The position numbers were made by a program, and so were the translations under genes. From Somniosus microcephalus (taxonomy: Eukaryota), in assembly GCA_052327205.1 (NCBI GenBank), contig JBMRGM010000043.1:30938001-31002000 (forward strand): a DNA stretch of 64,000 nt, given 5' to 3'. The notes beneath the pieces were generated by a model. The model made no database searches. It had not been told where the DNA came from and saw only the letters and a program-made list of their open reading frames with translations. Within the stretch, counting starts at the first letter, position 1. Each line of letters opens with the position of its first letter. Of this stretch, positions 9,340 to 61,905 are shown one piece after another.

Positions 9340-9370
9340 ATGAAACACATCTGTTGCCTTCTGATCTTCT
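9340..9370 (+). CDS. Gene A (inhibitory FcR-like receptor) leader exon S1, MKHICCLLIF
   Basis: gaaATGa start, hydrophobic peptide, phase-1 donor T|gtaagt; paralog at 38281. Confidence 0.8.
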
Positions 9371-9934
9371 GTAAGTGAATCTCAAATATTACCAGTGCCT
9401 TTGAAAATCTGCATCACTCACCCCGGACCCACAATCAGATTAATAAGGCTCATTGTCTAAAAGGCAGCGACGCTCTAAATTGATATTGACAGTTTCTGAA
9501 AGTAAGACATTTATTTAAAATGTGTTGAAATATCATTTGTAGGTTTCAGTTTTAAGCTGAATTTAGTGCAACAATGCTACGTTTGATTATGCAGGGTAAC
9601 AGGATCTTTCTGCTCATCTAAAGAGATCCACTTTACTATAACAGGTTGCTTCTAAACAGCATAATATTTTTGCTTTACCAATTATCTAGCCTCACCTGCA
9701 GAAACTGCTTTCAAATTTCTAATTCTTGTAGTTTTGCTTATAAGTAGGAATTAACAGTGTTATGCACTTCATATCAAGTGTCAGCGTTGTCCCAGTTGTT
9801 TCACTCTTACTAAATGCTATTAATAAATGCGGTGAGCTTTGCAGTGCTTGGTCTCTGTGGCTAGCTGTTAAACTTGGTCTAAAGCATTGCTTCATGATTT
9901 TCTGTGGCCCAGACTGGCTTCTTGTTAAACATCT

Positions 9935-10620
9935 GCTATAGAGAGACTGGTATAAAGATAGATTTATAGAGAGATAGAGAGGGAGAGACTTTCACACAAA
10001 CACAAACACACACACACAAGCAGATAACTAAAAATGCAGAGAGAGACCGAGACACAGATAGAGTCAAAGGGAGAGAGAGCAAGAGAGAGAGAGATTGAGA
10101 TGGAGTCAATGAGTCAGAGTGAAAGAGGAAGATTAGCACACGAGAGAGACAGTGAAAGGGATACCTCAAGTCATAGACACAGATGACTGAGGGAGAGACA
10201 CAAAAAAGAAGCAGAGAGAGGACATGAGGGAGAGAGAAGGAGGTACAGACACAGAGTTAGAGACACAGGTACAATGCAACAACATGCAGTGAAACAGATA
10301 GGCAATGAGAGAGAATAAGCGTCAAATAGACAGAGAGAGAGCAACAGAGAGTGACATGCAGACAGTGACACTGACATAAGTTAATTCAGAGAGAGAGTGA
10401 GACCGAGAGATCTACGGGCAAAGGGATGAAGACCGGGAAAGTTTTACAGAGAGAGAGTGAGTCGGCGAAGGAGAGACAGACAGAGTGAGAGACAGACAAA
10501 CAGAAGGCAAACATGCAGGGAGGCGGTGGGCTAAAGATCCTTGAGAGAGACCGAGAGGGGGAGAGGGGGCAGAGCGAGAGACACACAGATAGGGACAGAG
10601 CGAGACAGAGAGAGATTACA
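9935..10620. repeat. (GA/GACA)n purine-rich low-complexity tract in gene A intron
   Basis: Direct reading; shorter paralog at 38895-39045. Confidence 0.85.
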
Positions 10621-10949
10621 GTCTTTTTTTCAACTCAACTATGCACAAACACTATGATTATATTTTTTAAATTACTGGTGAAAGGGAGAACAACATACAG
10701 CAATGTGTTAACCGGGAACCATTTTTAATTTCAGGCTCGTTTAATATCTGCTGCCTAAACTGGAGTTAACAAAGCTGAAGAAATAACATTTACTTTGATT
10801 TAACTTGAGCTAAACTGACGGCTTCAATGATTTTGGCAGCGAAATTTATAATTGTGGATCTTTACTATTAATGTCTGATGCAATTTACTGGAATTTAGAC
10901 AGAAGTGACTCCTTATGGTCAAATGCCATTGAGACTGCCTTGTTGTGAG

Positions 10950-11015
10950 GTTGTGACGTCAGCGCTCTGTTGTCTTGTTAGCCACTGGACCACAAGAACA
11001 GAAAACAGGAACAAA
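10950..11015. promoter_or_regulatory. Candidate intronic enhancer (CRE-RUNX-ETS)
   Basis: TGACGTCA 10954-10961, GACCACA 10988-10994, ACAGGAA about 11005; all retained at 39332-39390. Confidence 0.4.
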
Positions 11016-11674
11016 CAGTGTCTGCATCTTTAATGTACCACCGACTCTTTCACCATAACCTCATCTAATTTAATAACATGGCGTTAGTTGTGGGACCATG
11101 TTAGCCACAGCTAGTTCCACAGCTTAATGCGGTAAATCTTAAATGATGATTAGTAATGCTTAATTTGTTTGTTCTTGAGCTTATAATCGCCCCCATGTTT
11201 TATATGTTGCTCAGCACATAAACCTTGTTAAAATAATTGGCCAAATTGAATACTTGTAACACTCACCCCATTGTATCCTAGCTGGACAAAAGGCCCAGGT
11301 TCTACATGTTGAGCAGTGACATTCAGAGACATCTGCATTGATCTTTGACCCTTTTGCAATTATTTTTGCAAAGTTTGCAGCAACAGGCATTGCCTTAGTA
11401 ATGTGATTCCTCTGGTCTGAGGCCCGACAAAATCTTTCTGCAGCCAGCTGCTTGATCATGCACCTTCTTCACGACGAGCAGTAGCAACCCAGTCAAAACT
11501 TGTGATGCTGATTAGGATAAAGACGATTTAAATGAAGATAGCAACATAAGAACAGGAGTAGCCCATTCAGCTCTTCGAGGCTGCTCTGTCATTCAATTAT
11601 ACCATGTTTGATCTGTACATCAACTCCAATGACGCCCCTTTGCTCAGCACATATTGTTACCCTCACTCAACTAG

Positions 11675-12065
11675 AGGCAGCCGTGGCTCAGTGTGTAGCA
11701 AACTCGCCTCTGAGTCAGAAGTTTTCTGGATTCAAGTCGCAATCCAGACACTTGAGCACAAAAATCTGGGATCAAATTCCAGTGCAGTGCTGTAGGAGTG
11801 CTGCACTGTCGGAGCTGCCGTCTTTTGGATGATACTTTAAAGCGAGGCCCCGTCGGGGAGATTATCCCCGGTGCCCTGGGCAATATTTATCCTTCAATTA
11901 AGATAAAAAAACAGATTATCTGCTCATTATTATCATCACTGTGAAAATTGACATCTACGGTTCCTACAGTGACTACACTTCAAAAGTATTTCATTGGCTG
12001 CAAAGCGCTTTGGGAAGTCCTGAGTTTGTGAAAGACGCTCTAAAAATGCAAGTCTTTCTTTTTAT
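11675..12065 (+). mobile_element. tRNA-derived SINE (SacSINE1/DeuSINE-like)
   Basis: Head ggcagccgtggctcagtg..ggattcaagtc with A/B-box-like motifs, tail aaatgcaagtctttcttt; paralogous insertion at about 40070-40460. Confidence 0.65.
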
Positions 12066-12542: not shown

Positions 12543-12572
12543 TGCAAATTATTCATCAGGCGACAACACAAG
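12543..12572 (+). CDS. Gene A leader mini-exon S2 (30 bp), (L)QIIHQATTQ
   Basis: Polypyrimidine tract + cag acceptor, AAG|gtatga donor, phase 1-1; completes signal peptide MKHICCLLIFLQIIHQATTQ-A. Confidence 0.75.
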
Positions 12573-13830: not shown

Positions 13831-14082
13831 CTCCTGGGCCGGAAGTGCTGGTTAGTTACCCCAGCAGTGGTGTGGTAAAGGAAGGAGAGGAATTTAAGCT
13901 GCATTGTCGATACAGTGGCAAAGTTACTTCCACTCATTGGTTTAAAAATAAAGTACATTTAAATAAAACTCACAGTGAGTTTTATGAATCGCTTGCGGAC
14001 AGTAGCAGTGGAGGCTCTTATCACTGTGCCCTGTTGTCAAACAAATGGGAGAGGAGTGAACCTCTGGAAGTGGTCACCATCG
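13831..14082 (+). CDS. Gene A Ig domain exon 1
   Basis: ctgcag acceptor, G|gtaggt donor, 252 bp phase 1-1; KEGEEFKLHC..WFKN..GGSYHC..RSEPLEV C2-set motifs. Confidence 0.9.
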
Positions 14083-15093: not shown

Positions 15094-15354
15094 CTTCTGA
15101 TATGTTTTTAACTCTTGAAGTAAATCCAAGGGCCGCGCTGACAGGTGAAAGAATTATCCTGAATTGTTTGGTGTCTGACCAGAAAGGGAAAGGATACTTC
15201 CTGTGGTATCAGAAAGAAGAGATAATACATGGAACTTCTCAATCTCAGTACATCATAGCTAATGCAAAAATTGCAGATGAGGCATCTTACCGGTGTGAAC
15301 GCAGAATAGGCTACAGGAAGTGGGTCTCACTGGAAGTAAACATCACCATAGCAG
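15094..15354 (+). CDS. Gene A Ig domain exon 2
   Basis: tttcag acceptor, CAG|gttggt donor, 261 bp; TGERIILNC..FLWYQ..DEASYRC. Confidence 0.9.
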
Positions 15355-16916: not shown

Positions 16917-17171
16917 ATGGCGATGTGGCCTTCCATGTCGACCCACCTTCGGGTTTGGAAGGAGATGTTCTGATTCTGAATTGTCGGTACAGAAACTATT
17001 ATTTGTGGAAAGATGTCGGTTTTTACAAAGGCAATAGAATAATCCACTCAATGAAGTTGAATAATTGGAAAGCTCTGCATAGCATTAGAATGAATAGATC
17101 AAAAGAAAGCGGATCGTACCATTGTACTATTGACGATAAGATTTCTCGAAGTGTTCATGTTCAAGTTTATG
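16917..17171 (+). CDS. Gene A Ig domain exon 3 (FcR D2-like)
   Basis: tattag acceptor, G|gtatgt donor, 255 bp; LEGDVLILNCR..VGFYKG..ESGSYHCT. Confidence 0.9.
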
Positions 17172-18208: not shown

Positions 18209-18487
18209 AACTCTTCGCCAAACCTAAACTGAGGACTGAGCCTGCAGTTGAAATATTTGAGGGAGACCAGTTAAAATTGATCTGTTTTGTTGAAACAATG
18301 GTGTCCAGTATTGGGCTGCAATACTCGTTTTACAAAAATGGCAAAGCTCTGAGCTTGAATGCATACAACAACTTTAATCTCACTGAGGCAGCTTCTTTGA
18401 AAGACTCGGGGACTTACCTGTGTGAAGCAAATGTTTTATACCGTGGTGTGAAAAAGAAGAGCAATGAGGTTTCCATTGTGATAAAAG
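18209..18487 (+). CDS. Gene A Ig domain exon 4 (FcR/FCRL D3-type)
   Basis: tcacag acceptor, AAG|gtaagg donor, 279 bp; ELFAKPKL..EGDQLKLIC..LQYSFYKNG..DSGTYLCEA..VKKKS, the FCGR1/FCRL D3 pattern. Confidence 0.93.
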
Positions 18488-21723: not shown

Positions 21724-22002
21724 AGGCCTTCTCCAACCCTACGTTGATGGCTGAGTGTGACGCTCAATTATTGGAGGGCCAACAGTTAAAACTCGCCTGC
21801 TTCGTTGAAATATTTCGATCCAATTCTTCTTTGAGATTCGTATTCTACAAAGATGGACAACCTCTCAATTCAGCAGCAGAACACAACTATTACATCAAGG
21901 AGACATCTAGGCTGGACGATTCGGGGATTTACCGGTGTGAAGCAACTACTTTGAACAGTGAGGTGAAGAAACTGAGTAATGAGGTTTCCGTTTCAGTCAG
22001 GC
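21724..22002 (+). CDS. Gene A Ig domain exon 5 (D3-type)
   Basis: ttatag acceptor, C|gtgagt donor, 279 bp; EAFSNPTL..EGQQLKLAC..FYKDG..DSGIYRCEA..VKKLS. Confidence 0.93.
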
Positions 22003-22998: not shown

Positions 22999-23280
22999 CT
23001 GGTGCTTCTCTCACTTCCATTAACGACAAAACTGAGATTTCAGCGGGGGACCGTCTCGTTCTCCAGTGCCTGGTGAAGAGAGGCACTGCACCACTTTTCC
23101 TCTGGTACCTGAACAACCAACAGTTAGGAAACAACAGCGAATCTTACCAATTAAACACGGACGGGAGTGAGCTCATTATCAATTCATTCCAGATAGGCCA
23201 CGGAGGTCGGTATCACTGTGTAGCGACCTATGAAGGAATATATAACACAACCAGCAATTATATCAACGTCACGATACAAG
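22999..23280 (+). CDS. Gene A Ig domain exon 6 (membrane-proximal)
   Basis: cctgtag acceptor, AAG|gtaaca donor, 282 bp phase 1-1; GDRLVLQCLVKRGTAPLFLWY..HGGRYHCVA. Confidence 0.88.
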
Positions 23281-24113: not shown

Positions 24114-24215
24114 CACAAAGTCAAACAACCGCGATCACAGCAACAGTTATTCCAGTTTTTCTGATCGCTGCCCTGATTGCACTGGTTTTCTTCAAACTTC
24201 GGAAGAAGAAACAAG
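24114..24215 (+). CDS. Gene A transmembrane exon (uncharged TM)
   Basis: ttccag acceptor, AAG|gtgagc donor; AQSQTTAITATVIPVFLIAALIALVFFKLRKKKQ = hydrophobic helix plus basic stop-transfer. Confidence 0.92.
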
Positions 24216-32717: not shown

Positions 32718-32749
32718 ATAATGATGATGGCGCCTCAGGAAGGAAACAG
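32718..32749 (+). CDS. Gene A cytoplasmic exon C5, DNDDGASGRKQ
   Basis: tttacag acceptor, perfect CAG|gtaagt donor, phase 1-0. Confidence 0.72.
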
Positions 32750-38280: not shown

Positions 38281-41200
38281 ATGAAGCACATCTGTCGCCT
38301 TCTGATCTTCAGTAAGTGAATCTCAAATATTTCCAGTGCCTTTGAAAGTCAACGTCACTCACCCCTGACAGTTAATCAGATTAATAAGACTCATTCTGTG
38401 AGAGGGATCATCACGCTATATTAATATTCAGAGATTATTAAGGTCAAACATTCATTTAAAATGCATTGAAATGTCATTTCTATGCTTCAGTTTTAATCAA
38501 AATTGAATGCAACAACAGAAATATGTTTGCTTAGTCAGGCTAACAGGATCTTTCTGCTCATCTAAGGGGATCCCTCTTTACTATTAAAGGTTGCAGCCCA
38601 CTTAAGATTGCTTCTAAACGGTCCAATGTTCATTATTTTACCAATTATTTAGCATCACCTGCAGAATCTGGTTGGACATTTCTTATTGTTCTAGTTTTGC
38701 TTATGAGGAAAAAAAAAATTTATACGCTTCATATCAAGTATCAGCGTTGGCTCAGTTGACTCACTCTTACAAATTGCTATTAATACATGCGGTGAGATTT
38801 AAAGTGCCTGGCTTCTGTAGCTAGATGTTAAAATTGGTCCGTATCATTGCTTGATGATTCGAGATCCACAGGCAAGTTTCTTGTTAACATCTGCCACAGA
38901 GAGAGAGAGAAAGATAGAGAGCAAGAGAACGGCAGAGCGAGAGAGAGATAGGGACAGAGAGAGACAGATAGACAAAGATAGGAAGAAAGTAACAATCTAG
39001 ATGTGCACGAGGGAGAGTGACAGAGAGAGTGAGAGCGAGGGCAGGAGTGTTTTTCAACTCAGCTTTTCACATTCTTTATGAAGGGCTTATTTTATTTTCA
39101 GGTGTGAGGGACAAAATATATATTAGCGGGACGACATCCCTTGAGTTAACAAAGCTGAGGAGAACACATTTACTATGATTTTACTTGAGCTAAACTGACG
39201 GCTTTAGGGTGTTTGGCAGGGAAATTAAAAATGCTGGATCTTTAAAATTAATTTCTGATGCTGTTTACTGGAATTTAGAGATAAGTGACTCTTTATGGCC
39301 ACATGACTTTGAGGCTACCTTTGTGAGATGCTGACGTCAGCGCTCTATTGTCTTGTTACCCACTGGACCACAAGACCAGCAAACAGGAACAAATAACAGG
39401 GTTTGCATCTTTAATGTACCACCGACTCTTTCACCAGAATCTCATCTTTTTCAATAACTTGACATTAGTTGTGGGACCATGTTGATTAAATCTAGTTCGA
39501 CAGATTAATGAGGTAGAGCATAAAAGATGTGAAGTTAATCTCAAATTGATCATTCTTAAGCATATAATAAGCCCCATGATTTATTTGTTGCACAGCACAT
39601 GAAACCCACTTTTTGGAAATATTGGCCTAACTGAATGCTTGAAACATTCACCCTATTGAGTCCCAGCTGGACGAAAGTCCCAGCGTTTACATGTTGAACA
39701 ATGAAATACAGACACATCTGCACTGATCATTGACCCGTTTGCAATTATTTTTGCAAAGTTGCAGCGACAGGCATTGCCTTAATAGTGTGATTCCTGTGGT
39801 CTGAGGTGTGATAAAAGCTTTCTGCTGCTTTCTGCTTCTAGCTGCTGGGTCATGTATTGTCTTCACGAGTATCAGTTGCAACCCTGGCAATACTTGTAAT
39901 TCTGATTAGGTTAAAGATGAGTTCACTGATAATAGGAACATAACAACAGGAGTAGGCCACTCAGCCCTTCGAGACAGCTCTGTCATTCAATTATATGATG
40001 GTTGATCTGTACCTCCACTCCAGTTAACCTACCTGGCTCAGTATCCATTGTTACCCTTACTCAACTAGTGTCAGCCGAGGCTCAGTGTATAGCATTCTCG
40101 CCTCTGAGTCAGAAGGGTCGTGGATTCCGTTCCTACTACAGGGACCTGAGCACAATCATCTAAGCTGATACTCCAGTGCAGTGCTGAGGGAGTGCTGCAC
40201 TCTCGGATTGGCTGTCTTTCGGATGAGACGTTACAGTGAGGCCCCTTCCAGGGTGTTTATCCCTGATGCCCTGGGCAATAGTTGTCCATCAATGACGTAA
40301 CAAGAACAGATAATCTGCTCATTATCAACATCATTGTGTGAACATTGGCTGCCACATTCCTACAGTCACTTAACTTTCAAAGTCTTTCATTGGTTTTAAA
40401 ACGCTTTCGGAAGTTCGGAGGTCTTGAAAGGTGCTATAGAAACGCAACTATTTCTTTCATTTTAATAAATAAATGATCGATCTCCATCTTTAAAGCACCA
40501 ATTTACGTTCCTCTAAAGTCTCATCACCCTGTAACACATCATGTCCTTCATCCAATTGCCACTATTGTTCAATCTTTCTGAAGGTTCTTCCTTTGGAATT
40601 CGTGTCTTAGCTCTCTTGTCCCTCTCCTCCTTAACCCAGCATGTACAAGGGCCGACACAATCCCTGTTGTTCATGGCCCCAGCCAAAGCTGTCACACATT
40701 CACCAGTCACTATTTCACCTTCATCTAGCCAACGGCCCATTCTAAGATGGATAATTCAACCTCCTCAAATTCCTTTCATTCTATGTCTTTTCCAAATTAA
40801 TTTTTAATTAGCTTTGCAAGCAGTTCTGCTAAACAAACTTCAAATTCTATCTGTAGAGATTATAATATGGTTATTAGTAACAATAGTCGAAACAAAGGTT
40901 GGGACTTCACTGGCCAAATTAACAAAGTCAAAACCCAAAATTACATACAACAGATATAGCAGGCCTGGCTGGGCGATCCTATGGACCCCTGTGTGGAATG
41001 TTTATGCCTCACCTAATCTAACCGATTAAATTCATTTTCTCAAATTATAATGCACGTTTTCCAGGAAAAGGAAACTTCATCAGTCACTCACTTCTCTCAT
41101 GCCGAAACATACAGCCATGTAAACACAGTATTATTGGTGTAGCCATATACATTTTTAGCCACCCCTAGTTTCTAACAGTGCTTTTCAGAATAGGTATGCA

Positions 41201-44036
41201 TCTGGGCAAGGGGCAGAACAATAAGTGGCAGCATCACTCGTGGTTAGTGTGAGGAGGTGATGTGGCTTAAAGGATTTGTAATTCACTATATGGGAACACC
41301 TTAAAGGTTTCTGCACGTCTTTTCTGCATTAATGCATTTAATGTACGTTTGTAAATATTTAGAATTGAGATGACTGAATATATTTGCTGTTAAACAAAGC
41401 CAACTGTACAACAATATTTACTACAACTTGCTGAATTAGGTCTCTTCCTATTTTATCCAGATAATTCTTCAAGAATTTCACAACTGGGGTAAGTCCGAGA
41501 ATTTTTTATATAAATAAGACATCGTGATACCCCTGAATATTTCTGTATAGCTGAATTAAATGTGGTAAATGTTTGTGCGGTAGATTTTTAACTTGCTTTG
41601 AGCTTAAATCTGGCATTGGTATCAACTGCCTATTATAGAAATCGTCTCATTGTATTTCATTTGAATTCAATGGGATTGAAAATCATTTGCTTTCTACAAC
41701 CGGAGCCAGTTCCGCGATGCCATTTCTAAGCCGGGTGGCAAGTTGAAAATATGTCCCTTTGACTATAGGCATCAATAGTAGCTCGCACTCACACTATTAT
41801 ACTCTCTGCAGTCTGGAAGAAGTGATCTTTTTTCTAATTTATGTCAGTTGTACCTAAACTTCCTAGCCTAAACTGAGTGAAATTCGCCCTGCATGGTTCA
41901 GTAAAAGGGACAATTACAAATCGTTTTACAGTCCACACGAAATTAGATTCCAGTGACTTGTGAACGATTTTGTGAAGAAGACTTTATACCCCAAACTCTC
42001 CATCACTCAGTGAGCTTGGCCATTCTTCAATCCTCACATTTAATTCATCATGTAAATCACAGGGAACTGAAGCATTCTCGGATTTAGTGTGCAGGGCGAT
42101 TGTGCATGTATTTAATTTTAGTAACATTCAAAGAGTGACTATCTCAGACAGTGCTCCATTTAACTGAACACGCTTTTCTGGATACAGTTCTAAATTTAGT
42201 AGCCTTGAAACCTTTTGTTGGGAGCGAATATCTCGTCCCCTTGTGAATCCAGTCACAGATTGTTGGCCGACTCTACTATACTGGAACTCTTTCCACATGT
42301 GTTTCAACCTCTTACTGAAAGTTGCTTGAAATTCCGATATGCTTCCATGGCCCTCAATTTGAAACTGTAGTACAATCTTCTTGAGCTTCGGTATAAACAC
42401 ATATCTGTATACAAAATCACCAATCCACTCATTATCATAAATAGTTTTGCCAAAAACTTCTCACTCTTCTTTCAAGACTGCACTTTATCAAAATACTCTA
42501 ACTCCTTTCAAGGCTCTGTCTCACAGGTTTTGGAACCAACCTTCTGACTCAGCTGTAATATTCAGGAAGAGTCTAGTATGTTTTTTTAAATGAAAATGAT
42601 ATAAAAATTGTACTCCCTGCGCCAGATGTGGGAAATCTGCTGGGCAGAACACAGAAAGGAAGATCTGGTGGGAAGGATCTCTTGCTGAAAGCAGCAATGC
42701 TTGATTTCTGTTCCATTAAGTACCGTGAATGGAAAATCCGGCGTGTTGTGTTAAGGATGTGTGAAACTCTGCACCACATTCTCCTCTTTGCGTTCCTTCA
42801 ACATAATTCTTAAAAAAAATGGCAGGGAAAAACATTTTACCCCATGAACTTGCAAAAATACCAACTAAAATTTTAAGATGATCTCTCTTGATTTATAAGT
42901 TACACGGTTGTGATGTATCTCAATATTCTCTACACTTTCCTAATTCCCTTTCAACTCTGCACCCACAGTTTTTCCAAACAGATACCCAAATATCAAAGAT
43001 ACAATCTTCCATTTATTCGGTATTGACATCTCCCTTCCATTTAGGACACAATCGTGTGAAGTTCATTTTATGGTGGAGTTGAAAACAGCTGCTAATGGAT
43101 CGCTGGCCACTTTTACCCACCGCCTGATTTTGTTTCCAAATTCAGCTGAAGTGTAAACCGAGTGGTTAATCCTCTACCGCCCGCTTTCTGCTGGACGGTA
43201 AAAGTGAATATTAACATCAACTTTCCAACTTGCCGCTCCAGAATAAACTGGCATTATTGTCAGCCATCCATTAGAGATAGCGCCCGATTTTCCTTTGAAT
43301 TAATTTCGAATTTAGAATAATGCGGCGAGTGCTGTTACTGGGCTTCGATTCCTCCACCAGATTTTTCAATTCTGTACTTGTCCCAGTTGATTCTTACTGC
43401 CCAGGCGGTAATGTCGATCATATACACACCTCCAGCTGTCACTCTTAACAGTTAACAATCTTCAACGATGAGCAGTATAACTTCATCTGGGGCCACAGCA
43501 CACAGCGAGCACTAGTGAAAACGTGTCGCTTTTTGGACTCCGCCGATTTGAATTTCCATAAATTATAATGGTTCAAAAATGATCTGGAGGACTTCTAAAC
43601 GGACATCCATTTCGCTACCTCTCGCTTTGAGCTGTCTTCAAGGACCAAATTCAACTCCAGTTAATCAAGTTGAGTGAACACTGGAAAATTTCAGTGAGAT
43701 CATTCAGGATCTGCTGAGACTAGGTCCTCAGACCCCTTGGGAGGAAAGTGCCAGAGCCCGGGCCCCTGTCTACCTTGAGCTTCTTCAACTTATCCAATTG
43801 ATGTGGCCTTGCGATTTTAAAGAATTGTCTCTTGTAAACTGCTTGCTGATTTTTGACAATTAATCTACGATTTCATTTTATTTAAAAGTGATAGTTCCGT
43901 TGTTGGTGATTATTGTTAACTTTAATCTCTGAAAACATATCTGCACCAAGGGAGACAACTAGAAACAGACCTCCAGGTGAAGAGAAGTCTGCAGACAATT
44001 CCGAGTATGCAGCTGTGGAATCAGCGCAAAGCACCG
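38281..44036 (+). pseudogene. Unit B: internally deleted FcR-like paralog (exons S1 38281-38311, C1 41461-41488, C2 43951-44036)
   Basis: S1 MKHICRLLIF; intron homology to gene A stops at about 40510 and restarts at about 41190 in the TM-C1 intron; no S2, Ig or TM exon between; C2 encodes ..NSEYAAVESAQST. Confidence 0.75.
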
Positions 44037-45538: not shown

Positions 45539-46889
45539 TCTATGTCAACCTCCATCACTATGTCTATAACTATCTCCATGCCTATGTCTAGCTCTACCTT
45601 TATATCTCTATCTCTATCTCCACGTCCAACTCTCTTATCTATATCTCTCTGTATATCCTAGTCTCTTGCATTCAATCTCACTCTATTGCTCTAACTCTCT
45701 ATCCTTTGTACCTATCTATCTCTATCTCTCTATCTGTCTGTATATATCCATTTCTATCTCTATCTCTCCTCTCTCTATGGGCTGGATTTTTCGATCGGAG
45801 CCTTCCTGCGGATGGAGGCCTCCGATCGGAAAATATATAACATATAAGAACTTATCTGCTGGCTGCATAGGTCCCTCGACTTCCGATCCTGGGCCTCTGC
45901 TCTACGAAATATGCAGAGGCCCAGTTATCTCAGGGGTGCAGGCGGTTCGCAAGCGTCCCTGGGATCACGTGGGCCATGGGGAGTGGGCCATGGGGAAACA
46001 GTCAAAGATGGGAAACCCCCTTCACACTTTTGAAAGGTCTCTACTCACAGATCTTTCAAAAGTATGAAAGGGGATCACTTACAAATAAGTTAAACATTAT
46101 TGTTTTTCAAATCCCTTTTTAAAAATTAGTTAAAATTACATTAAATTAAATATTTTGAAGAAAAATTTGTTTTTGAAAAAAATATAGTTTTTTAAGGAGG
46201 TATTATAAATACCTACATTATAAATGTGAAAAAATAATCATTTTTTGTTTTAATTTCTTATGCTGGTGAAAGCAAGCATTACACCTGTGTTTACCAGGCG
46301 TAAGATTTTGAAAGCTTTTCAGCAGGCAGAAGTTGTGCAGAAAGCGGAATTCTTCACCGGCGGAGGTCCTTTTCCCGGGCAGGTGGAGGATCTGTTAAGA
46401 AAATTCTTGACAGATCGGATGAGCCGGGTTTTAATGCATGCGCTTCACATGCCTGAAACTGGCACTTGCGAGGTCCCTACAGGTGAGTGCACAACTCGTA
46501 CATACCCGGTGTGGGAAAACCGGCCCCATATCTCTAACACTATCTCAATGACCAAGTCTATGTCTAGCCGACTTCTGCATATTTGTCCATGTCTATGTCT
46601 GTGTCTATCTCGAGCTCGATGTGGATATCTATGACTACCTCCATCACCATGTCTATAACTATCTCCATGCCTATGCCTAGCTCTACCTACATATCGCTAT
46701 CTCTATCTCGACACCCATTGACCTCTCCTATCTATATATCTTTGTATATCCCAGTCTCTCATTCTATCTGTATCCCTCACTTTAAATCAACATCTCTCTA
46801 TACCTCTAACTCTCTATCACTATGTACCTATCTATCTCTATCTCTCTATCTCTGTATCTCTCTCTGTACCTCTCTATATCTGTCTAAAC
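44611..46889 (+). repeat. Near-identical segmental duplicate of window 1-2273
   Basis: Base-by-base match with few substitutions and one 6-bp indel; identical ORFs in the track (1050/45666, 1644/46260). Confidence 0.95.
45779..46527. mobile_element. MITE-like element (copy of 1163-1911)
   Basis: Same TIRs and body, inside the segmental duplication. Confidence 0.65.
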
Positions 46890-47185
46890 AATGTCTTATT
46901 ACTTATGGGGGTAACAGTTAAAATTAAGTGTGCTAAAGCGTATCGGCAGTCAATGGAATAGAAATTGGGCTGTGTATATAACGGATGACCAATCTGCTGC
47001 CATCGGTTTTTCACAGCGGCCAAACATGAATTCTCTCACCTCTAATTTCAGCAGCGTGGGGAAGCAAAACTCTGAGCCTCTGCTGCCTCGGGTACCCCTT
47101 CCATTCCGTTAGCTCTTGGCAATCATAACTCTATCTTTGAATTTTCAAAGGAGCAATCAAATGCATATTTTGTTCTATTTGATAG

Positions 47186-47464
47186 AGCTCTTCTCCAAAC
47201 CTACACTGCGGGCTGAGCATGAAGCTCAATTATTTGAGGGCGAACAGCTAAAACTCGCCTGTTTGGTTGAAACATTTCCCACCAGTTCTTCTTTGAGTTA
47301 CGTATTTTACAAAGATGGACAAGCTCTCATTTCAGCAGCAGACCACAACTATTACATCAAGGATGCATCTGGGCCTGACGATTCAGGGATATACCGGTGT
47401 GAAGCAATTACTCTGAACAGCAAGGTGAAGAAACTGAGCAATCACGTTTCAGTGTCAGTCAGAC
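47186..47464 (+). CDS. Unit C Ig exon (D3-type)
   Basis: gatag acceptor, C|gtgagt donor, 279 bp; ELFSKPTL..LAC..FYKDG..DSGIYRCEA. Confidence 0.88.
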
Positions 47465-48346: not shown

Positions 48347-48634
48347 GAATGACAGTATCCAAACCGGAACTGGCAATCAGCCCTGGTAAAGAGTTAATGG
48401 AAGGAGACACCGTGTCATTAACCTGCTCAGTGTCCAACGGTTCTACCCCGATTACGTACATTTTCTACAAAGACTCAAGTAATGAAATCTACCGAGAGGA
48501 ATCCGACCTAAGCGAAATTACTCACCAAATCGGTAACGTCAACAAAAGCATCCAAGGAGATTACAGTTGCGGGGTTTCAAATGAGGCAACAGAACCTCCT
48601 CTACGCAGCGAATTCTTCTTGGTTACAGTGATAG
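48347..48634 (+). CDS. Unit C Ig exon (FCRL D5-like)
   Basis: ttatag acceptor, G|gtgagt donor, 288 bp; VSKPEL..EGDTVSLTCSVSNGSTPITYIFY..GDYSCGVSN..RSE. Confidence 0.88.
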
Positions 48635-48947: not shown

Positions 48948-49093
48948 CAGAGCGCAATGATTATTGTAAGGGTCCTTCTCTGAGCCGCTGTACATATTTC
49001 ACTGTATGATCATTAACATGTGTTGTGCTAACACAGAAATTAAGTCTGTGATAGATGCTATAGTTGGCAAATTCATATTTTTTTTTTATATAG

Positions 49094-49372
49094 AGGCCTT
49101 CTCCAAGCCGGAATTGAGGGCTGAGTCCGAATCTCAATTATTTGAGGGTCAACAGTTAAATCTCGAATGCTTGGTTAAGGTATATCGCTCCAGTTCTCCT
49201 TTGAGAATCCTATTTTACAAAGATGGACAAGCTCTCGATACAGCGGCAGGCAACATTTATTACATCAAGGAGACATCTCGGTCAGAAGATTCGGGGATTT
49301 ACCGGTGTGAAGCAACAACGTTGAACAGCGAGGTGAAGAAACTGAGTAATCAGGTTTCAGTTTCAGTCAGAC
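49094..49372 (+). CDS. Unit C Ig exon (D3-type)
   Basis: atatag acceptor, C|gtgagt donor, 279 bp; EAFSKPEL..LEC..FYKDG..DSGIYRCEA. Confidence 0.88.
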
Positions 49373-49546
49373 GTGAGTACAATTTACAGCAATTATTTAT
49401 CATTTTTATTCCACAAAAGTACCAACACATGCTCACAATGGGATTCTTCAGTCTGGCACAGGGCTTATCTATAAGTTTAAAAAGGACTTAATAAATAAAT
49501 GAATAAATCCGGGCATATAGAACAAGGGTAGATCAATTTTTATATA

Positions 49547-49868: not shown

Positions 49869-50329
49869 ATATATTTATACAAAACATTCGTCAGGCCACT
49901 GATAAAGTGGACAATTGGAGTACTTCCATTCTAAAGAGAGCATTATAATAATAGAAAACAGGCAGTTTTGATTCACCAACGTGGCACCAGGGATGGAAAA
50001 TGTAATGATCAGGATAGTCTTGAGCTACTGGGACTGATACTAGAAGAGAACCCAAGGCTAAGAGGACATGTATTAGTGTTTTTTTTAACAATGTAAGTGT
50101 GATGATAGAGCGAATAGGGTAAGTTTTATCCTCTGAATCCGAAGGCAGGAAGGAAGGATCATCAATGCATAATTATCAATCAAAGCGGGAGGGTACAACT
50201 GAAAAGAATGTACTTTAGGTAGACGAGTGCTGTAATATAGAATGATTTACCAGGTGGAGCGCTTGCGTTAGATACCATTGCATTTAAGTAGAGTAGTGTT
50301 TATGTTACTGGAATAGTGCAGAGTTACTG

Positions 50330-51175: not shown

Positions 51176-51429
51176 TGTGATTGACTGCACTATTACTGAA
51201 TATCAGGCGCTCATTTATCACCACTGCCCGTTATTCACCAGCGCCTGAGACAAATTAGCATAGTCAGTACGAATCAATACCAGGCTGGAGATAGTAGGGT
51301 AGTCTCAAGTGGACTGCATTAGGAATTAATGTAGTTCCAGGATCAGGCTTTCCTATATTAATTCCAACTGCTGCCAAAGTAGAAGATGGAGACGGGCGAC
51401 CAATATTGGTGTAGTAACCTGAATTACAG

Positions 51430-54400: not shown

Positions 54401-55458
54401 GAGTAAATTGATCATTTTCTGAGCGGCAGGCAGTGAGTAGTGGGGTACCGCAAGTTCGGTGCTAGGACCCCAGTTATTCATAATCTGTATTAATGATCTA
54501 GACCAGGGAACTAGATGTAATATCTCCCAGTTTGCAGACAACACAAATCTGGGTGGGCGTGTGTGCTGTGAGGAGGATGCCGAGAAACTCCAGTATGATT
54601 TGGACTGGTTAGGTGATTGGGCAGATGCATGGCAGATGCAGTATAATGTGGATAAATCCACTGTGATGGCAAAAACAGGAAGGGTGATTATTATCTGAAC
54701 GGCAATAGATTGGGTGAAGGGGAAGTGCAATGAGACCTGGGTGTCCTTGTGCACCAGTCGCTGAAGGTAAGCATGCAGGTGCAGCAGGCGGTTAAGAAGA
54801 CAAATGGTATGTTGGCCTTCGTAGTGAGAGGGTTTGAGTGCAGGAACAAGGATGTCTTGCTGCAGTTGTACAGGGCCTTGGTGAGACCACACCTTGAGTA
54901 TTGTGTGCAGTTTTGGTCGACTTGTCTGAGGAAGGATGTTCTTGCCATGGAGGGAGTGCAGCGAAGATTCACCAGACTGATACCTGGGATGGCAGGAATG
55001 ATGTAAGAAGAGAGATTGGGTCGATTGGTCTTGTATTGGCTAAAGCTTAAGAGAATGAAATGGGATCTCTTTGAAACTTATAAAATTCTAACAGGACTAG
55101 ACAGACTAGATGCAGGAAGGATTTTCCCAATTGCGGGGGAGTCCAGAACCAGGGGTCACTGTCTAAGGATAATGGCTAAGTCATTTAGGACTACGATGAG
55201 GAGGAATTTCTTCACCCAGAGAGTGTTGAACCTGTGGAATTCTCTACCACAGAAGGCAGTTGAGCGCAATTCATTAAATATATTCAAGAAGGAGTTAGAT
55301 ATATTTATTAAGGCTAAAGGGATCAAGGGATATGGGGAGAAAGCAGGGACAGGGTACTGAGTTTGGATGATCAGCCATAATCTCATTGAATGGCGGAGCA
55401 GGCTCGAGGGGCCGAATGGCGTACACCTGCTCCTATCATCTATGTTTCTATGTATCTA
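51430..55458 (+). mobile_element. Near full-length decayed CR1 LINE: ORF1 esterase, APE endonuclease, RT
   Basis: VMGDSSVRG..MVCCLTGA..VHIGTND (SGNH/GDSL ORF1); IIGITETW, IMGDFN, SDHN (APE); QHGF, FADNT, RPHLEYCVQFW (RT); (tctatgtt)n tail; many stops/frameshifts. Confidence 0.93.
53915..54235 (+). mobile_element. Young tRNA-derived SINE (HE1/V-SINE-like) nested in CR1 RT
   Basis: A/B boxes (tagtggttagc, gggttcaaatc), core gtgtggagtttgcacattctccctgtgtctgcgtggg, (gattctgt)3 tail, gaag on both flanks. Confidence 0.85.
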
Positions 55459-55681
55459 AATTGGGCTGTGTATATAAAGGATGACAAATCTACTGCCAGA
55501 TGTTATCCACAGCGCCCAAATTGAATTATCTCCCCTCCAATCTCAGCAGCATCGGGAAGCAAAACTTCTGAGCCTCCGCTGTCTCGGGCATCACTTCCAT
55601 TCCGTTAGATCTTGGCAATCATAACTCTATCTTTGAATTTCCAAATGAGCAATCAAATGCATATTTCGTACAATTTTCTAG

Positions 55682-56489
55682 AGCACTTCTACAAACCTAC
55701 ACTGAGGGCTGAGCCTGAAACATAGAAACATAGAAGATAGGAGCAGGAGTCGGCCATTCGACCCCTCGAGCCTGCTCCGCCATTTAATAAGATCATGGCT
55801 GATCATCCAAATTCAGTACCCTGTCCCTGCTTTCTACCCACATCCCTTGATCCTGTTAGCCTTAAGCAACATATCTAACTCCTTCTTGAAAATAATTAAT
55901 GAATTGGCCTCACACTTCCTTTTGTGGTAGAGAATTCCACAGGTTCTCCACTCTCTGGGTGAAGAAATTCCTCCTCATCTCTGTTCTAAATGGCTTACCC
56001 CTTATCCTTAGACTGTGACCCCTGGTTCTGGACTCCCCGACTATCGGGAACATCCTTCCTGCATCTAATCTGTCGAGTCCTTTTAGAATTTTATAAGTTT
56101 TATTGAGATCCCCTCTCATTCTTCAAAACTCCAGCGAATATAAGCCCAATTGACCCAATCGCTCCTCATACGGCATTCCTGTCATCCCAGGTATCAGTCC
56201 AGTTAATCAGCGCTGCACTCCCTCCATGGCAAGAACACCCTTCCTCCGATAAGGAGAACATCCTTCCTCAGATAAGGAGAACATCCTTCCTCAGATAAGT
56301 TACTTGAGGGCCAACAGTTAAAACTCGCCTGTTTGGTTGAAATATTTCGCTCCAGTTCAGCGGCAGACCACAACTATTACATTAAGGAAACATCACGGCC
56401 TGACGATTCGGGGACTTACCTTGGTAAAGCAACTACTTTGCACAGCGAGGTGAAGAAACTGAACAATCAGGTTTCAGTTTCAGTCAGAC
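55682..56489 (+). pseudogene. Unit C D3-type Ig pseudoexon split by a CR1 insertion
   Basis: EHFYKPTLRAEPE (55682-55719) / CR1 / LLEGQQLKLAC (from 56300); 45-bp deletion removing the FYKDG strand; second Cys is Gly (TYLGKA). Confidence 0.88.
55720..56299 (-). mobile_element. CR1 3' fragment inserted in Ig exon
   Basis: ORF 55910..56119(-) MRRNFFTQRVENLWNSLP; acatagaaacatag tail; 23-bp triplication at the truncated 5' end. Confidence 0.9.
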
Positions 56490-56682
56490 GTGAGTACAAT
56501 TTACTGCAATTATCTATCATCTTTCATCCACTAAATTACCAACACATGCACACAATGGGATTCTTCATTCTGGCACAGGGCTTATCTATATGTTTAAGAT
56601 GCACTGTATAAATAAATGAATATATCCGTACATACTTGAAACCGTATTATGTTATTCATGGGATATGTTTATTTTATTCCAG

Positions 56683-56784
56683 TGCAGATTCACACAACCG
56701 CGATCAGAGCCTCAGTTTTTACACTTTTTCTTGTTGCTGCCCTGATTGCACTGGTACTCGTCAATCGTCCCAACAAGAAACAAG
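56683..56784 (+). CDS. Unit C transmembrane exon with Arg (activating type)
   Basis: ttccag acceptor, AAG|gtgagt donor, 102 bp like gene A; QIHTTAIRASVFTLFLVAALIALVLVNRPNKKQ. Confidence 0.88.
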
Positions 56785-57312
56785 GTGAGTCATGTTTTAC
56801 AGGCAGGTGATTGGCTCTATAGTCACGTGAAGGGCTTCAGTGTATTCTATATTCAGTTGCGACATTCAAAATGCAACCATATTATTTGGGCAAAAGAGGC
56901 TGGACTGGACTGGGCTGGAAAAAGAAAAATGTTATTTGAAATGACGATCTCAGAACAGACAGGAGCTTAAGACTGGGGCGAATTTGCCCAGTTAAGTGTT
57001 TTTATTTCCCTTTGTGCTGTTCAGAATTGATATGCATGTGGCCGAGGGGTAGAACAATAAGTGGCAGCATCATTCGTGGTTAGTGTGAGGAGACGATGCA
57101 TCCTAAAGGATTTGTAACGCGGTATATGGTAATATCTTACATGTTTCTGTATATCTTTTCTGTATTGATTCTGTATTAATAAGTCATTTAATGCACGTTT
57201 GTAAAAGTTTAGATTTAATGTGAATGAATACGTTTGCAGTTAAACAAATCCACCTGTACAGCAATATTTATTGTACAACTTGCTGAAGTAGGTCTCTTCC
57301 TGTTTTATCCAG

Positions 57313-57343
57313 AAAATTCTTCAAGAATTTCACAATCGCTTGG
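57313..57343 (+). CDS. Unit C cytoplasmic exon C1, ENSSRISQSLG
   Basis: atccag acceptor, GG|gtaagt donor, phase 1-2. Confidence 0.82.
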
Positions 57344-58254
57344 GTAAGTCCACGCAATAATTAGCTAAATAAGCCGTAGCTATATCCCTGAATATACTCA
57401 GTCTCTGTATAGCTGAACTAAACGCGGTAAATGCTTGTGCGGTAGATTTTATCAATTGCATTGAACTTTAATCTGGCATTACGGATCAGCCTCCTGTTAT
57501 AGAAAACACCATATTTTAATTTAATTTGAGTTGAATGGGATTGAAAAACATGTGGTTTCTACAACGCGTGTCTGTTCTGCTACACCACTTTTTATTCCGG
57601 GCACCGAGTTGGAAAATCTGCCCCATTGAAGATAAGCCTTTACTGTAGCTCGCACTCAAACGATTACACTCCCTGCAGTCTATAAGGAGTGATCATTTTC
57701 TAAGTTATGTCAGTTGTACCTGAACTTCCTAACTTAAACAGAGTGAAATTCACCCTGCGTGGCACAGTAAAAGGGGTGATTACAAATCGTTTTACAGTCC
57801 GCAGATTAGATTCCAGTGACTTGTAAATGAATATTGGGCGGAGTGTAAAAACTGTTGGAGTTTCGTTTAACCCTGCTCTCCACCACCACCCAAGAAGAAA
57901 TTATACCCCAAACTCTTCAATCACTCAGTGAGCTGGACTATTCTTTAATCCTCCAATTTAATCCTCATGTAAATCATAGGGAACTGAAGCATTCTAGGAT
58001 TTGGTGTGCAGGGCGATTGCGCATGTAGTTAATTTTAGTAACATTCACACAGTGACTATCTCAGGCAGTGGTCCATTTAACTGAACAAGCTTTTCTGGAT
58101 ACAGTTCTACTATTGATCAGCTTGAACAGTGTTTGTTGGCTTGGAATATCTAGTCCCCTTGTGAATCCAGTCGCTGTTTATTTTCCGACTCCCCTATGCT
58201 GGACATCATTCCACATGTGTTTTAACCTCTGACTGAATGTTGCTTGAACTTTCG

Positions 58255-59570
58255 ATACGCTTGTGTGGCCCTCAGTTTGAAACTGTGGCACTCTTCTAGA
58301 GCTTTGGTATGGAAGCACATCTCTATACGCATTACCCAATCCTGTCATAACCATAAATAATAATTTTTAAAACTTCTCCATCTTCTTTCAAGATTGATTT
58401 TTTTTTTAATTACTCCAACTCCTTTCAAGGCTTTATCTCCCTGGTTTTGTAACTAATCTAGTGACCCAGCCTTTATATTCAACAAGCGTCTAGTATGTTT
58501 CTCTTATTAAAAAGATATCAACATTGTATTCACTGCGCCAGATGTGGGACATCTGCTGGGCAGAGCACAGAAAGGAAGATCTGGTCGGAATGATCTCTTG
58601 CTGAAAGCAGAAACGCTTGATTTCTGTTCCATTAAGTACCGTGAAAGGAAAATCCTGCATGTTCTGTAAAAGATGTGTTAACCTCTCCACCATATTCTCA
58701 TCTTTGCATTCCTTCAACATGATTCTTAACAAACAAATGGCAGGAAAAATCATTGATACCCCATGAACTTGCATCAATACCAATTATAAATTTACGGTTA
58801 TCTTTCTTGATTTCTGTGGCCCTCAATTTGTAACTGTGGCACTCTTCTTGAGCTTCGGTATTAAAACGCATCTCTAAGCACATTCCACCATCCTGTCATA
58901 ATCATAAATAATATTTCAAAAAATTTCTCATTCTTCTTTCAAGACTAATTTTTTCAAAATACTCCAACTCCTTTCATCACTCTGTCCCCTTGGTTTTGGA
59001 ACTAATCTAATGATCCTGCCTTTACATTCATCAAGAGTCTAATATGTTTCTCTTATAAAAATGATATCAACACTGTACTCACTGCGCCAGATGTGGGACA
59101 TCTGCTGGGCTGACAGCATAACGTATGTTCAGTTGGAAGGTATCCCTTGCTGAACGCAGAACCGCTTGATATAAACACATATAAAACACATCTGTATGCA
59201 CATTTCCCAAAAACCTCTTAATCATAAATAATTATTGCTAAACTTCGCATTATTCTTTCAAGACTGAATTTTATCACAATACTCCAACTCCTTTCAAGGC
59301 TCTATCGCCCTGGTTTTGAATGTAAGCTCGTGACACGCCCTTTATATTCAACAAAAGAATCAATGTTTATTTTATTAAAATGATACCAGCACTGTACTCC
59401 CTGCGCCAGATGTGGGACATCTGCTGGGCAGAACACAGAAAGGAAGCTTGGTTGGGAAGGAGCTCTTGCCGAAAGCAGAACCACTTGCTCCCTGTTCCAT
59501 TAAGCTGCGTGCAAGGAAAATCCTGCCTGTTCTGTAAATGATGTGTGAACCTTTCCACCAGGTTCCTCTT
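58255..59570. repeat. Diverged intronic tandem triplication
   Basis: ctgcgccagatgtgggacatctgctgggc at about 58533, 59082, 59401; single copy in unit B at about 42617. Confidence 0.8.
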
Positions 59571-60678
59571 TGATTTCCTCCAACGTGATTTTTAGCACAA
59601 AAATCATAGAAAAAATGTTTTTAACAAAGGACATGCTCCAATACCAACTATAATTTTAAGGTTATCTCCCGTGATTTATAAGTTACACGGTGGTGATATA
59701 TCTCAACATTCTCTACAGTTCCTAATTCACTTTCAACACTGCACCCACTTTTTTTTTTAAACTGATACCCAAATATCAATGATACATTCTTCCTTTTATT
59801 TGGTATTGAATCCTCCCTTCCATTTAGGACACAATGGGTCAAATTTGCTTTTCCAATGGAGTTGAAAGCAGGTGGTAAGGGATGGCCGGCCAGTTTTACA
59901 CACAGCCTACTTTCCATTTCCAAATTCGGCTGGAGTGTAAGACGAGCGGCTGAGCCTTTACCACCCATATTCTGCTGGACGGTAAAAGTGAATATTAACT
60001 TCAACTTTCCAACTTGCCGCTCGGGCATAAACTGCCATTTCTGGTCAGCCGTCCAATTGAGATTGCGCCCGATTATCCTGTGAAACAATTTCGAAGCTAT
60101 GAAAATCCGGCGAGTGCTGTTTCTTACTGCCCAGCAGTAATGTGGATCATATACCCCCCGCCAGGAGACACTCTTACTACGTTACAATCTTCAACCATAA
60201 TCAGTATAACTTAATTTGGGGCCGCAGCACACAGCGAGCACTAACGAATCTATTGCACATTTTGGACTCGACCGATTTTATTTTCCATAAATTTCAATGG
60301 ATCAAAAATGATCTAGAGGATTTCTAAATGGACAGCCGATTCGCTACATTTCGCTTTGCGGTGTCTTCAAGGACCAATTTCTACTGAAGTGAGTCATGAT
60401 AAGGGAAATCTGGAAAATATCTGAGGTAATTCAGGATCTGCTGAGAGAACGACGTTAGACCCCTGGGGAGGAAAGTGCCACGGATCGGCAACCTGTCTAC
60501 CTTGAGCTTCTTCAACTGGTCCAATGGATGTGGACTTGCAAGTTTAAGGTTATGTCTCTTGTAAACTGCTTGCTTGTTTTTGATATTTATTCTACTATTT
60601 CATCTTATTTGAAAGTAACATTTCCGTTGTCCACGATTATTGTTAAACTTTAATCTCTGTGAACATTTCCGCACTTAG

Positions 60679-60764
60679 GGAGGCAACTAGAAACAGACCT
60701 CCAAGTGAAGAGAATTCTGCAGGCAATTCCGAGTCTGCAGGTGTGCGATCAGCTCAAAGCACCG
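60679..60764 (+). CDS. Unit C cytoplasmic exon C2 without tyrosine
   Basis: cttag acceptor, G|gtaagt donor; EATRNRPPSEENSAGNSESAGVRSAQST. Confidence 0.8.
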
Positions 60765-61059
60765 GTAAGTTCAACCTGATCAGCATGTGATGAACCGTAG
60801 ATTGTTTGGGGTAACATTTCCATCGGAAGTTCTCTCCAATATCGTTATCACTTCGGCAGAAGTTAGGCTACAACTCCAGAGAGATCACCCTTTCTGCAAG
60901 TTTTCCACGGAAATTCCACCAACGTTACGACGAGACATTGGGAAAAACCACATAGAGTTTCTATTTCCTTCTCTGCGTACACTCAGCACAATCTAGCGTT
61001 AGGTTTTCTTCTTCACTGTCTGGATATTGACCTATTATATCTCTAACATTATCTCAAAG

Positions 61060-61735
61060 TCTATGTCAGTGGCTGGTCTACATCTATATCTGTGTCTATG
61101 TCTATGTCTCTCTCTATGTCTATTCCTATCTCGAACTCTATGTTGATCTCTATGTCCACCTCCATCAATCAGTCTTTACCTATCTCCATATCTATGTCTA
61201 GCTCTATCTTTATATCTCTACTTCTTTATCCACCTCCATCTCTCTATCTCTACGTATATCCCAGTCTCTCGCAATCTATCATCATGCCTCACTATATTTC
61301 TTTACATTTATCTCGCTTTCCATCGCTCCATCTCTCTCTCTATCTATCTATTTGTATCTATCTCTATTGATCACTCTGTCTTGCTGGTTACAACTCTATC
61401 TCTCTCTGTCTATGTCCATTTAGATATCGATCTCTAGCTCCCCTATCTCTACGTCTATGCCAGACTCTTTCTATATGTTTATGCACCTCTATTTGTATCA
61501 AATAATTTATTAGTATCTCTATCACTGGCTCTAGTTATTTGTCTACCAGTAACTCCAAATTTATGTCCGTCTCAATCATCTCTCTGCCTCTGTGCCTATC
61601 AATATCTATTTCGATTTATATCCCTCTTTCTCTATATTCTATCTCTATCTTTATCTCTATCACTATCACTATCTCTGTCTCTATCTCTACCTCTGTCTAA
61701 AATCTCTACTCCCTATCTCTTTCTCTAAACCGTCA
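61060..61735. repeat. (TCTA/TC)n low-complexity tract, paralog of 929-3110 without Penelope or MITE
   Basis: Direct reading; collinear with 2600-3110 and continuing into the homolog of 3110-4130. Confidence 0.8.
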
Positions 61736-61882
61736 TTAATCTCTGATATTACAGTCGTACTCTTATGGACACCTGTTGCTTGCGAAACTGTGTAAATCCT
61801 GAGTGAAATATGATGGCTCTCTACAGAATAAAATTGTGCCTTATGTAAAGAATCAGAAAGTTAAATTATACTAATATTGCAG

Positions 61883-61905
61883 TTAATTTACTTGGATACT
61901 CTTAA
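61883..61905 (+). CDS. Possible terminal exon of unit C, (V)NLLGYS*
   Basis: ttgcag acceptor in phase 1; AG position shared with 3248; weak polypyrimidine tract. Confidence 0.25.

Follow-up and report, generated by a model that had tools for sequence, protein, structure and literature searches.

The closest described system for the locus analyzed in this work is the XFL group of Xenopus, a large tandem family with shuffled Fc receptor (FcR)-type immunoglobulin (Ig) domains D1-D5 and a two-exon leader, in which forms with a neutral transmembrane (TM) segment plus inhibitory motifs of the immunoreceptor tyrosine-based type (ITIMs) occur together with Arg-TM forms whose activating TM1 binds FcR-gamma (PMC2413239). 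Pairing of an outer-TM Arg with the Asp of FcR-gamma is described for XFL and for receptors of the leukocyte receptor complex (LRC) (PMC2413239, PMC6557307), where activating KIRs have been proposed to arise from inhibitory ones (PMC6557307). The paired receptors of the teleost LITR family have been proposed to link the FcR and LRC families (PMC4810170, PMC2413239), the common origin of which has long been discussed (PMC2413239). Here, we analyzed 64,000 nucleotides of the genome of the shark Somniosus microcephalus (the window; positions 30938001-31002000 of contig JBMRGM010000043.1, abbreviated C43). The window holds an intact gene predicted to encode an inhibitory receptor (gene A), a gutted copy (unit B) and a headless fragment (unit C), the last two from a class with an Arg in the TM segment that would be the activating, probably FcR-gamma-coupled, twin of the inhibitory class; we assign this reading a probability of about 0.52. 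ITIMs recruit SHP phosphatases, so that ITIM forms on leukocytes would recruit SHP-1/2 and dampen responses, and Arg forms would pair with the Asp of a shark FcR-gamma-like chain and signal via its immunoreceptor tyrosine-based activation motif.

FcRL are stated to be absent from cartilaginous fish in three papers of the literature that includes PMC4016189, PMC5742104, PMC13337447, PMC4536121, PMC6557307, PMC4810170 and PMC6795676. As told in the open literature, sharks are without FCRL, LRC genes and FcR-gamma; the S. microcephalus genome has all three. No account of the present family in sharks was found in the open literature, and subscription papers on LITR or LRC synteny may already cover elasmobranchs; the main text and one supplementary file of the elephant shark genome paper (PMC3964593) gave no term matches. 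The genes are already implied by the automatic names given by NCBI.

The reading frame of gene A stays open across a two-exon leader (31 and 30 nt), six Ig exons of phase 1, a neutral TM exon and the tail, with AG/GT at all exon ends, and the full model of 725 amino acids describes an intact six-Ig receptor (Table 1). A previous sequence-only reading of the window had proposed a leader, six Ig domains, a neutral TM and an ITIM tail for this gene; the frame, the splice sites and both of its ITIMs (IIYSVV and LVYSEV) were recovered, and the end of the tail had to be revised, two exons having been missed. Comparison with a Heterodontus relative allowed us to recognise these exons, which bring the tail to six exons and add a third ITIM, VTYATV, and a terminal Tyr motif, CVYENL. 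The LVYSEV exon was considered as the terminal exon of gene A and was ruled out by its conserved donor and the exons downstream. From its domains and motifs, gene A is predicted to encode an inhibitory receptor with FcR-type Ig domains.

Table 1. Features of the window, with positions counted from its first nucleotide.
Feature	Positions	Strand	Basis or remark
Gene A leader exon L1 (31 nt)	9340..9370	+	splice model
Gene A leader mini-exon L2 (30 nt)	12543..12572	+	matches N-termini of shark relatives P0001/P0003
Gene A Ig1, weak FcgRIII-like	13831..14082	+	splice model, structure search
Gene A Ig2, best match FcgRI	15094..15354	+	splice model, structure search
Gene A Ig3, without Pfam match	16917..17171	+	top blastp matches are FCRL2 domains
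Gene A Ig4, FCRL D3-type	18209..18487	+	domain trees
Gene A Ig5, FCRL D3-type	21724..22002	+	best matches FCRL5 and FcgRI D3
Gene A Ig6, clusters with membrane-proximal domains of bird FCRL	22999..23280	+	domain trees
Gene A neutral TM exon (102 nt)	24114..24215	+	splice model
Gene A tail exon C1	24706..24736	+	splice model
Gene A tail exon C2	26720..26811	+	Cys where most paralogs keep Tyr
Gene A tail exon C3	27798..27854	+	ITIM IIYSVV
Gene A tail exon C4	28635..28700	+	ITIM LVYSEV; ends at donor (28700)
Gene A tail exon C5 (32 nt)	32718..32749	+	predicted from paralog conservation
Gene A terminal exon C6	34215..34343	+	ITIM VTYATV and CVYENL
Unit B, Arg-class remnant	38281..44036	+	L1 38281-38311, C1 41461-41488, C2 with SEYAAV 43951-44036
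Recent duplication breakpoint	46888..46903		unit B joined to middle of an Arg-class gene
Unit C Ig exon, D3-type	47186..47464	+	equals Ig5 of parent gene
Unit C Ig exon	48347..48634	+	best match FCRL5, E 2.5e-26; LILRB1 1.5e-7
Unit C Ig exon, D3-type	49094..49372	+	equals Ig7 of parent gene
Dead D3-type exon	55682..56489	+	repeat insertion inside, second Cys gone; directly before Arg TM
Unit C TM exon with Arg	56683..56784	+	AGA codon 56706-56708
Unit C tail exon C1	57313..57343	+
Unit C tail exon C2 (to 60764, without Tyr)	60679..60790	+	read-through stop 60788-60790
Candidate alternative terminal exon with AATAAA	61755..61832	+	frames differ among paralogs

The remainder of the window carries pieces of the Arg class. 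The L2, Ig and TM exons of unit B were not found, and no L2 was present in 38.0-47.2 kb. We placed a breakpoint near 46.9 kb because the left and right sides match different upstream segments: positions 28001-46903 are 97.5% identical to one of them, and positions 46888-64000 match, at 98-99% identity, the 3' half of a gene that is complete (C43:30.806-30.847 Mb). This parent of unit C is a complete seven-Ig gene about 150 kb upstream, and unit C is a 5'-truncated version of it, without the first four Ig exons and without a leader of its own; therefore, the Arg-type gene exists, but not as a whole in the window. Positions 1-2287 and 44611-46903 form a further duplicate (99% identical). Units B and C could on paper be joined in frame, but the product would have no full signal peptide, and this fusion was rejected as the functional form. 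Several elements of unit C had been reported before, namely its Ig exons, a TM exon of the same length with ACA changed to AGA, a Tyr-free C2 and the lack of subsequent ITIM exons, and all of them held, except that unit C is a fragment and not a whole gene. Its TM exon is 102 nt long like the neutral ones and carries AGA at codon 8, where 11 of 11 distinct neutral TM exons encode Thr; C2 has Ser at the Tyr position of the paralogs, and no ITIM exons were found downstream of the TM exon in the window.

In order to follow both classes beyond the window, we read C43 at 30.278-31.702, 25.24-25.54 and 21.49-21.59 Mb and in smaller pieces (31.702-31.862 Mb was left out). At least 44 related TM exons are present on C43; among the 40 read in detail, 21 are neutral and 19 carry Arg, and four more of neutral type lie outside, so that the proposed two-class (ITIM and Arg-TM) shark receptor cluster stands. 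The eight distinct Arg TM sequences, all with AGA (8/8), form one clade against the 11 neutral ones (ultrafast bootstrap 100), and, unlike these, they have also lost a Pro in the middle of the TM and two basic residues next to the membrane. Since other sharks have Thr at this position, the Arg is derived, and the Arg class is, judged by its sequences, one clade derived from a neutral TM with loss of three ITIM exons. It would have arisen from an inhibitory gene by a point change and tail loss, in the same direction as proposed for KIR, where activating forms would derive from inhibitory ones (PMC6557307). Two complete seven-Ig Arg genes were found; a complete Arg gene is 76-92% identical per domain to the ITIM gene at 25.43 Mb (pN 0.076, pS 0.119). 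One Arg lineage has a broken D4 exon without AG in every copy, and therefore up to six more Arg genes would be in frame if this exon is skipped.

A candidate partner is encoded on contig C40, where an FcR-gamma-like TM exon with Asp has FceRI gamma as its best solved-structure match. Another adaptor-like TM exon, on contig C14, is probably CD3-zeta-like.

Constraint on the Arg TM exon was analyzed with seven Arg types, one near-twin being left out. The exon diverged less (p=0.117) than its flanking introns (0.285 and 0.320), with 0 vs 11 indel events, and neutral TM exons showed the same pattern of a conserved exon between diverged introns. In 3000 runs of neutral simulations, frame and splice sites survived in 2-4% and a core free of charge and Pro in 0.4-2.5%. 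Regarding expression, two RNA runs of unspecified tissue, read to about 24% and about 31%, were searched with a 1.1-kb stretch and gave 17 and 2 reads, all sense and exon-confined; since they are less than 95% identical to it, they come from paralogs. One sense read covers an Arg TM, and its eight differences fit only the paralog at 21.5 Mb among the 19 distinct exons; the read is clipped where splicing of the 21.5 Mb gene predicts, at a point where the intron would otherwise keep matching, from which single read we infer that this Arg gene is spliced. RNA mapping, which had been suggested as a check, thus produced one read fitting an Arg-TM gene and none for unit C.

A number of observations weigh against an activating function of the Arg class. 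None of the 14 elasmobranch relatives with a TM has Arg at the unit C position, and none of the 19 reads matched unit C at 95% identity or more, none being found for unit C or its parent. The Arg alone survived in 25-33% of the simulations, which is not beyond chance; conservation at third codon positions equals that of the core, so that gene conversion could explain why the exon is conserved. For the Arg TM, dN/dS by the Nei-Gojobori method is 0.93. The NxxR motif is absent from seven of the eight Arg types, which have TxxR, and the single NxxR type has broken Ig exons. The Arg is followed by 18 hydrophobic residues, whereas 16 are counted for the classical activating TM of LRC type in the neighbouring LILR-type genes and 15 behind the Asp of the adaptor. 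The most hydrophobic window of 19 residues opens immediately behind the Arg, so that the Arg may sit in the headgroups. The Arg replaces a residue inside the parent TM window, yet it precedes the best hydrophobic window. Finally, an automated tally found a leader with a full set of open Ig exons in only 2 of 19 Arg genes and in 4 of 21 neutral ones, the neutral count rising to 9 when loss of a Cys is tolerated. The ITIM-like SEYxxV is kept in five of the eight Arg types.

In another explanation, only the ITIM genes are real inhibitory receptors, the Arg class consisting of non-signalling decoys or decaying copies whose Arg, at the outer membrane edge, hitch-hiked on a tail-less cassette through recent duplications. 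The position of the Arg, whose distance to the cytosolic edge exceeds that of the classical type by two residues, the lack of NxxR, the non-significant retention of the Arg and the dN/dS value agree with such an origin, as do the broken state of most Arg copies, the finding that 11 of the 19 Arg exons are identical recent copies, and the lack of unit C reads. Against it, the Arg TM exon keeps its frame, splice sites and hydrophobic core next to introns that are 28-32% diverged, complete Arg genes exist with three different ectodomains, and one read fits a spliced Arg gene. We regard the decoy explanation as somewhat unlikely.

The retained Tyr motif bears on another possibility. A Tyr-free tail is not typical of the Arg class, given that SEYxxV persists in C2 of most distinct Arg TM types, including the intact 21.5 Mb gene fitted by the RNA read. 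KIR2DL4 and chicken CHIR-AB combine a charged TM with one tyrosine motif, and the Arg class could be bifunctional or weakly inhibitory in the same manner, the Tyr-free type of unit C being a late derivative. However, the Tyr is gone from both Arg types whose FcR-type ectodomain is intact, and in each it was lost differently, in one by substitution and in the other by a shifted acceptor and an early stop. In addition, C2 carried SEYxxV ancestrally in every class, so that the motif may be a passive feature. We consider the bifunctional explanation quite improbable.

The FcR-type identity of the Ig domains was examined by structure searches, protein searches and trees. Ig5 matched FCRL5 (6e-15) and FcgRI D3 (2e-12) first among solved structures, and FCRL5 or FcgRI gave the best match for three of the four window domains searched (Ig2, Ig5 and the middle unit C Ig); for Ig1 the match was weak, with phage-type Ig proteins ranking above FcgRIII. 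When the Heterodontus protein P0001 was used as query, 13 further elasmobranch proteins were followed by mammalian FCRL and then by PECAM1 among the best 120 of 149 matches, with E values down to 6e-72 for mammalian FCRL vs 2e-33 at best for PECAM1. The 13 relatives are 33-54% identical over most of P0001 and have the same leader, TM and tail motifs; elasmobranch proteins of this family (P0001-P0015, 10 genera) are auto-named Fc receptor-like 2/3/5 or PECAM-like by NCBI/UniRef. The shark origin and the FcR-type domains claimed by the sequence-only reading are in line with these matches. Two ray relatives, P0011 and P0013, combine a full ITIM tail with an Arg or Lys located two positions ahead of the Arg site in the TM exon. 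Conversely, with tree-shrew FCRL3 D3 as genome query, 17 of 17 matches belonged to the shark family (74 candidates); the best E was only 9e-4, and therefore sensitivity was low elsewhere in the genome.

Domain phylogenies, which had been proposed as a check, gave a partial answer. In trees of 70 domains, weakly supported and made without named LILR, KIR, XFL, LITR or MILR1 sequences, Ig4 and Ig5 stood beside FCRL D3 and Ig6 beside bird FCRL with modest support (SH-aLRT 81 for the D3-type), and in one tree the domain cIg2 grouped with human PECAM1 d4/d5 (SH-aLRT 87). This grouping, the weakness of the trees, the many PECAM1 matches of the Heterodontus query and the PECAM-like automatic names of some shark relatives would fit an expansion of a PECAM1-like or other Ig-superfamily adhesion receptor, with a merely generic likeness to FcR. 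Nevertheless, PECAM1 scored far below mammalian FCRL, the best PDB matches are FcRs and the match of FCRL3 D3 is reciprocal; moreover, the split leader and the tandem array speak against an adhesion-receptor origin, PECAM1 being a single-copy gene and the shark family counting at least 44 copies. Hence, we consider this origin highly improbable.

Compared with the described systems, the shark family resembles XFL as a tandem FcR-type family with exon-wise domain shuffling, a two-exon leader and mixed ITIM and Arg forms, and one phase-1 exon per Ig domain after a two-exon leader is a feature of FCRL and XFL alike. It differs from XFL in that the activating XFL TM has NxxR and shares one exon with the tail, whereas the shark TM has TxxR in 7 of 8 types and separate C1 and C2 exons; in that XFL is linked to SLAM, IGSF9 and DUSP23, whereas the shark cluster lies in an LRC-syntenic region; and in that XFL TM1 is a separate type, whereas the shark Arg TM derives from the inhibitory one by a point change. 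Mammalian FCRL1-6 and FcgRI include the best-matching solved structures and share multi-exon ITIM tails with the shark family at about 30% identity; leader exons of FCRL1-6, FcgRI and some XFL measure 30/21 bp and those of the shark 31/30 nt, and the classical FcR TM motif (M/L)Fxx(D/N)TxL is absent from 19 of 19 distinct shark TM exons. With the LRC receptors (LILR, PIR, KIR, GPVI, NKp46 and CHIR) the family shares the chromosomal neighbourhood and perhaps an Arg near the outer TM end, but its window domains are FcR-type (LILRB1 being only a lower match, for one domain) and its TM lacks both NxxR and the C-terminal acidic residue. LITR are set apart by their description, with FcR-like D1D2, KIR-like distal domains and reportedly none of the D3-D5 types, D3-type domains being the core of the shark family. 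The shark genes are a paired-type family that would work like XFL and departs from FCRL in synteny and TM, and from LRC receptors in domain type.

Regarding chromosomal location, PRCC and UFC1, which we take to be markers of human 1q21-23, lie on contig C41, the FcR-gamma-like exon on C40 and the family on C43. By these two markers the family shows no 1q21-23 synteny (SLAMF8, IGSF9, DUSP23 and TAGLN2 were not searched), and for this reason it was not filed under FCRL orthologs. NDUFA3 (16.22 Mb) and PRPF31 (16.29 Mb) are on C43, 9-14 Mb from the cluster, and a Tweety gene lies at 26.9-27.1 Mb between sub-clusters, both exons tested matching TTYH2 best; NDUFA3, PRPF31 and TTYH1 are LRC markers (PMC6557307).

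A second, larger Ig family flanks the cluster, with LILR-type exons about 8 kb past the last exon of the first. One such exon gave at least 99 matches among the 150 scored of 238 candidates, 98 of them on C43 at 21.5-42.5 Mb (including 23.2-25.2, 30.0-30.2 and 32.0-42.5 Mb), and the profile of the family matched PIR-B and LILRB1/2 best; a word-index search with an LILR-type domain found no matches among 593 candidates, and a profile search did find some. Each of the genes sampled has a pair of Ig exons; the TM was of the classical LRC-like Arg kind, ending in a C-terminal Glu, in three cases and neutral in one. The LRC-type TM, with NxxR and a C-terminal acidic residue, is present in looser form in this neighbouring family. 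Database relatives are shark proteins auto-named IGSF1-, TARM1-, OSCAR-, LAIR1- or LILRB-like (10 of 150 looked up). The FcR-type family therefore lies among LILR-type genes on an LRC-syntenic chromosome and not at a 1q23-type FCRL locus. FCRL-named and LRC-type proteins are apparently co-located in Heterodontus (P0001/P0004/P0005 with P0186) and Heptranchias (P0003/P0008 with P0203/P0212) as well, as judged from a shared length of the longest contig (27,249,576 and 1,238,652) and not from gene positions, and FCRL-LRC linkage thus appears common to two other sharks.

Three histories fit this arrangement: an ancestral FCRL-LRC linkage that was split later in bony vertebrates, the retention of different ohnologs, and a translocation within elasmobranchs. 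Ohnolog retention is conceivable because 1q23 and 19q13 are regarded as paralogons (PMC4536121). With FCRL-type and LILR-type genes mixed in one cluster, a common origin of FcR and LRC can be tested by synteny, and both families would date back to the ancestor of jawed vertebrates. Should the Arg anchor be functional, it would represent a recent and independent origin of an activating receptor class. The cluster also supplies cloneable candidates for the shark IgM Fc receptor, reported functionally in 1988 according to the reference list of PMC6795676. XFL are described as lacking the Fc-contact residues of classical FcRs (PMC2413239), and Ig binding is therefore a minority possibility. In a wider proposal, sharks would have kept the cluster (LRC) of FcR-type and LILR/KIR-type genes that was ancestral to jawed vertebrates; in the shark lineage a second FcR-gamma-binding anchor would have arisen by point mutation of an inhibitory TM and been transferred, as a cassette, to ectodomains of both FCRL and LILR type, with family members being the uncloned shark IgM Fc receptor. 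As a joint proposal, this is distinctly doubtful.

The Arg TM-C1-C2 cassette lies behind three ectodomains, FCRL-type, LILR-type with two Ig and a divergent type with four Ig. In an open-frame gene at C43:21545495-21511691 on the minus strand, two LILR-type Ig exons are followed by the Arg TM of the FCRL family and by its C1 and C2. The roughly 6 kb that precede the TM of this gene align colinearly, at about 90% identity, with the 31.51 Mb Arg gene, and its nearest relatives in other species use other TMs, which suggests cassette capture. The inverted twin of its Ig exons is followed by an 88-bp tandem array of more than 20 kb (C43:21.643-21.665 Mb), with no TM exon seen in the 22 kb read there. 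At C43:25273704-25303927 (copy at 30278384-30302351), four divergent FcR-like Ig exons have as their only plausible TM an Arg TM 14.7 kb downstream; the leader of this gene was not found, and its C2 acceptor is shifted, leading to an early stop.

In genome searches, one Ig exon gave 110 matches among 138 candidates, all on C43, and a TM exon 40 matches among 46 candidates. The family forms a tandem array interleaved with LILR-type genes, with three to nine Ig domains per gene and many broken exons. Its units recur about every 71 kb, and it contains an inverted arm (30.37-30.66 Mb) enclosing a gap of 500 N; some array copies may be assembly or haplotype effects. The family duplicates rapidly, and pathogen or polymorphic host ligands, possibly including Ig, might drive this turnover. 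Family-wide pN/pS of the Ig exons was 0.87-0.97 for D2, D3 and D4 and 0.53-0.61 for D1, D5, cIg2 and D6, hinting that domains 2-4 may carry a variable ligand surface.

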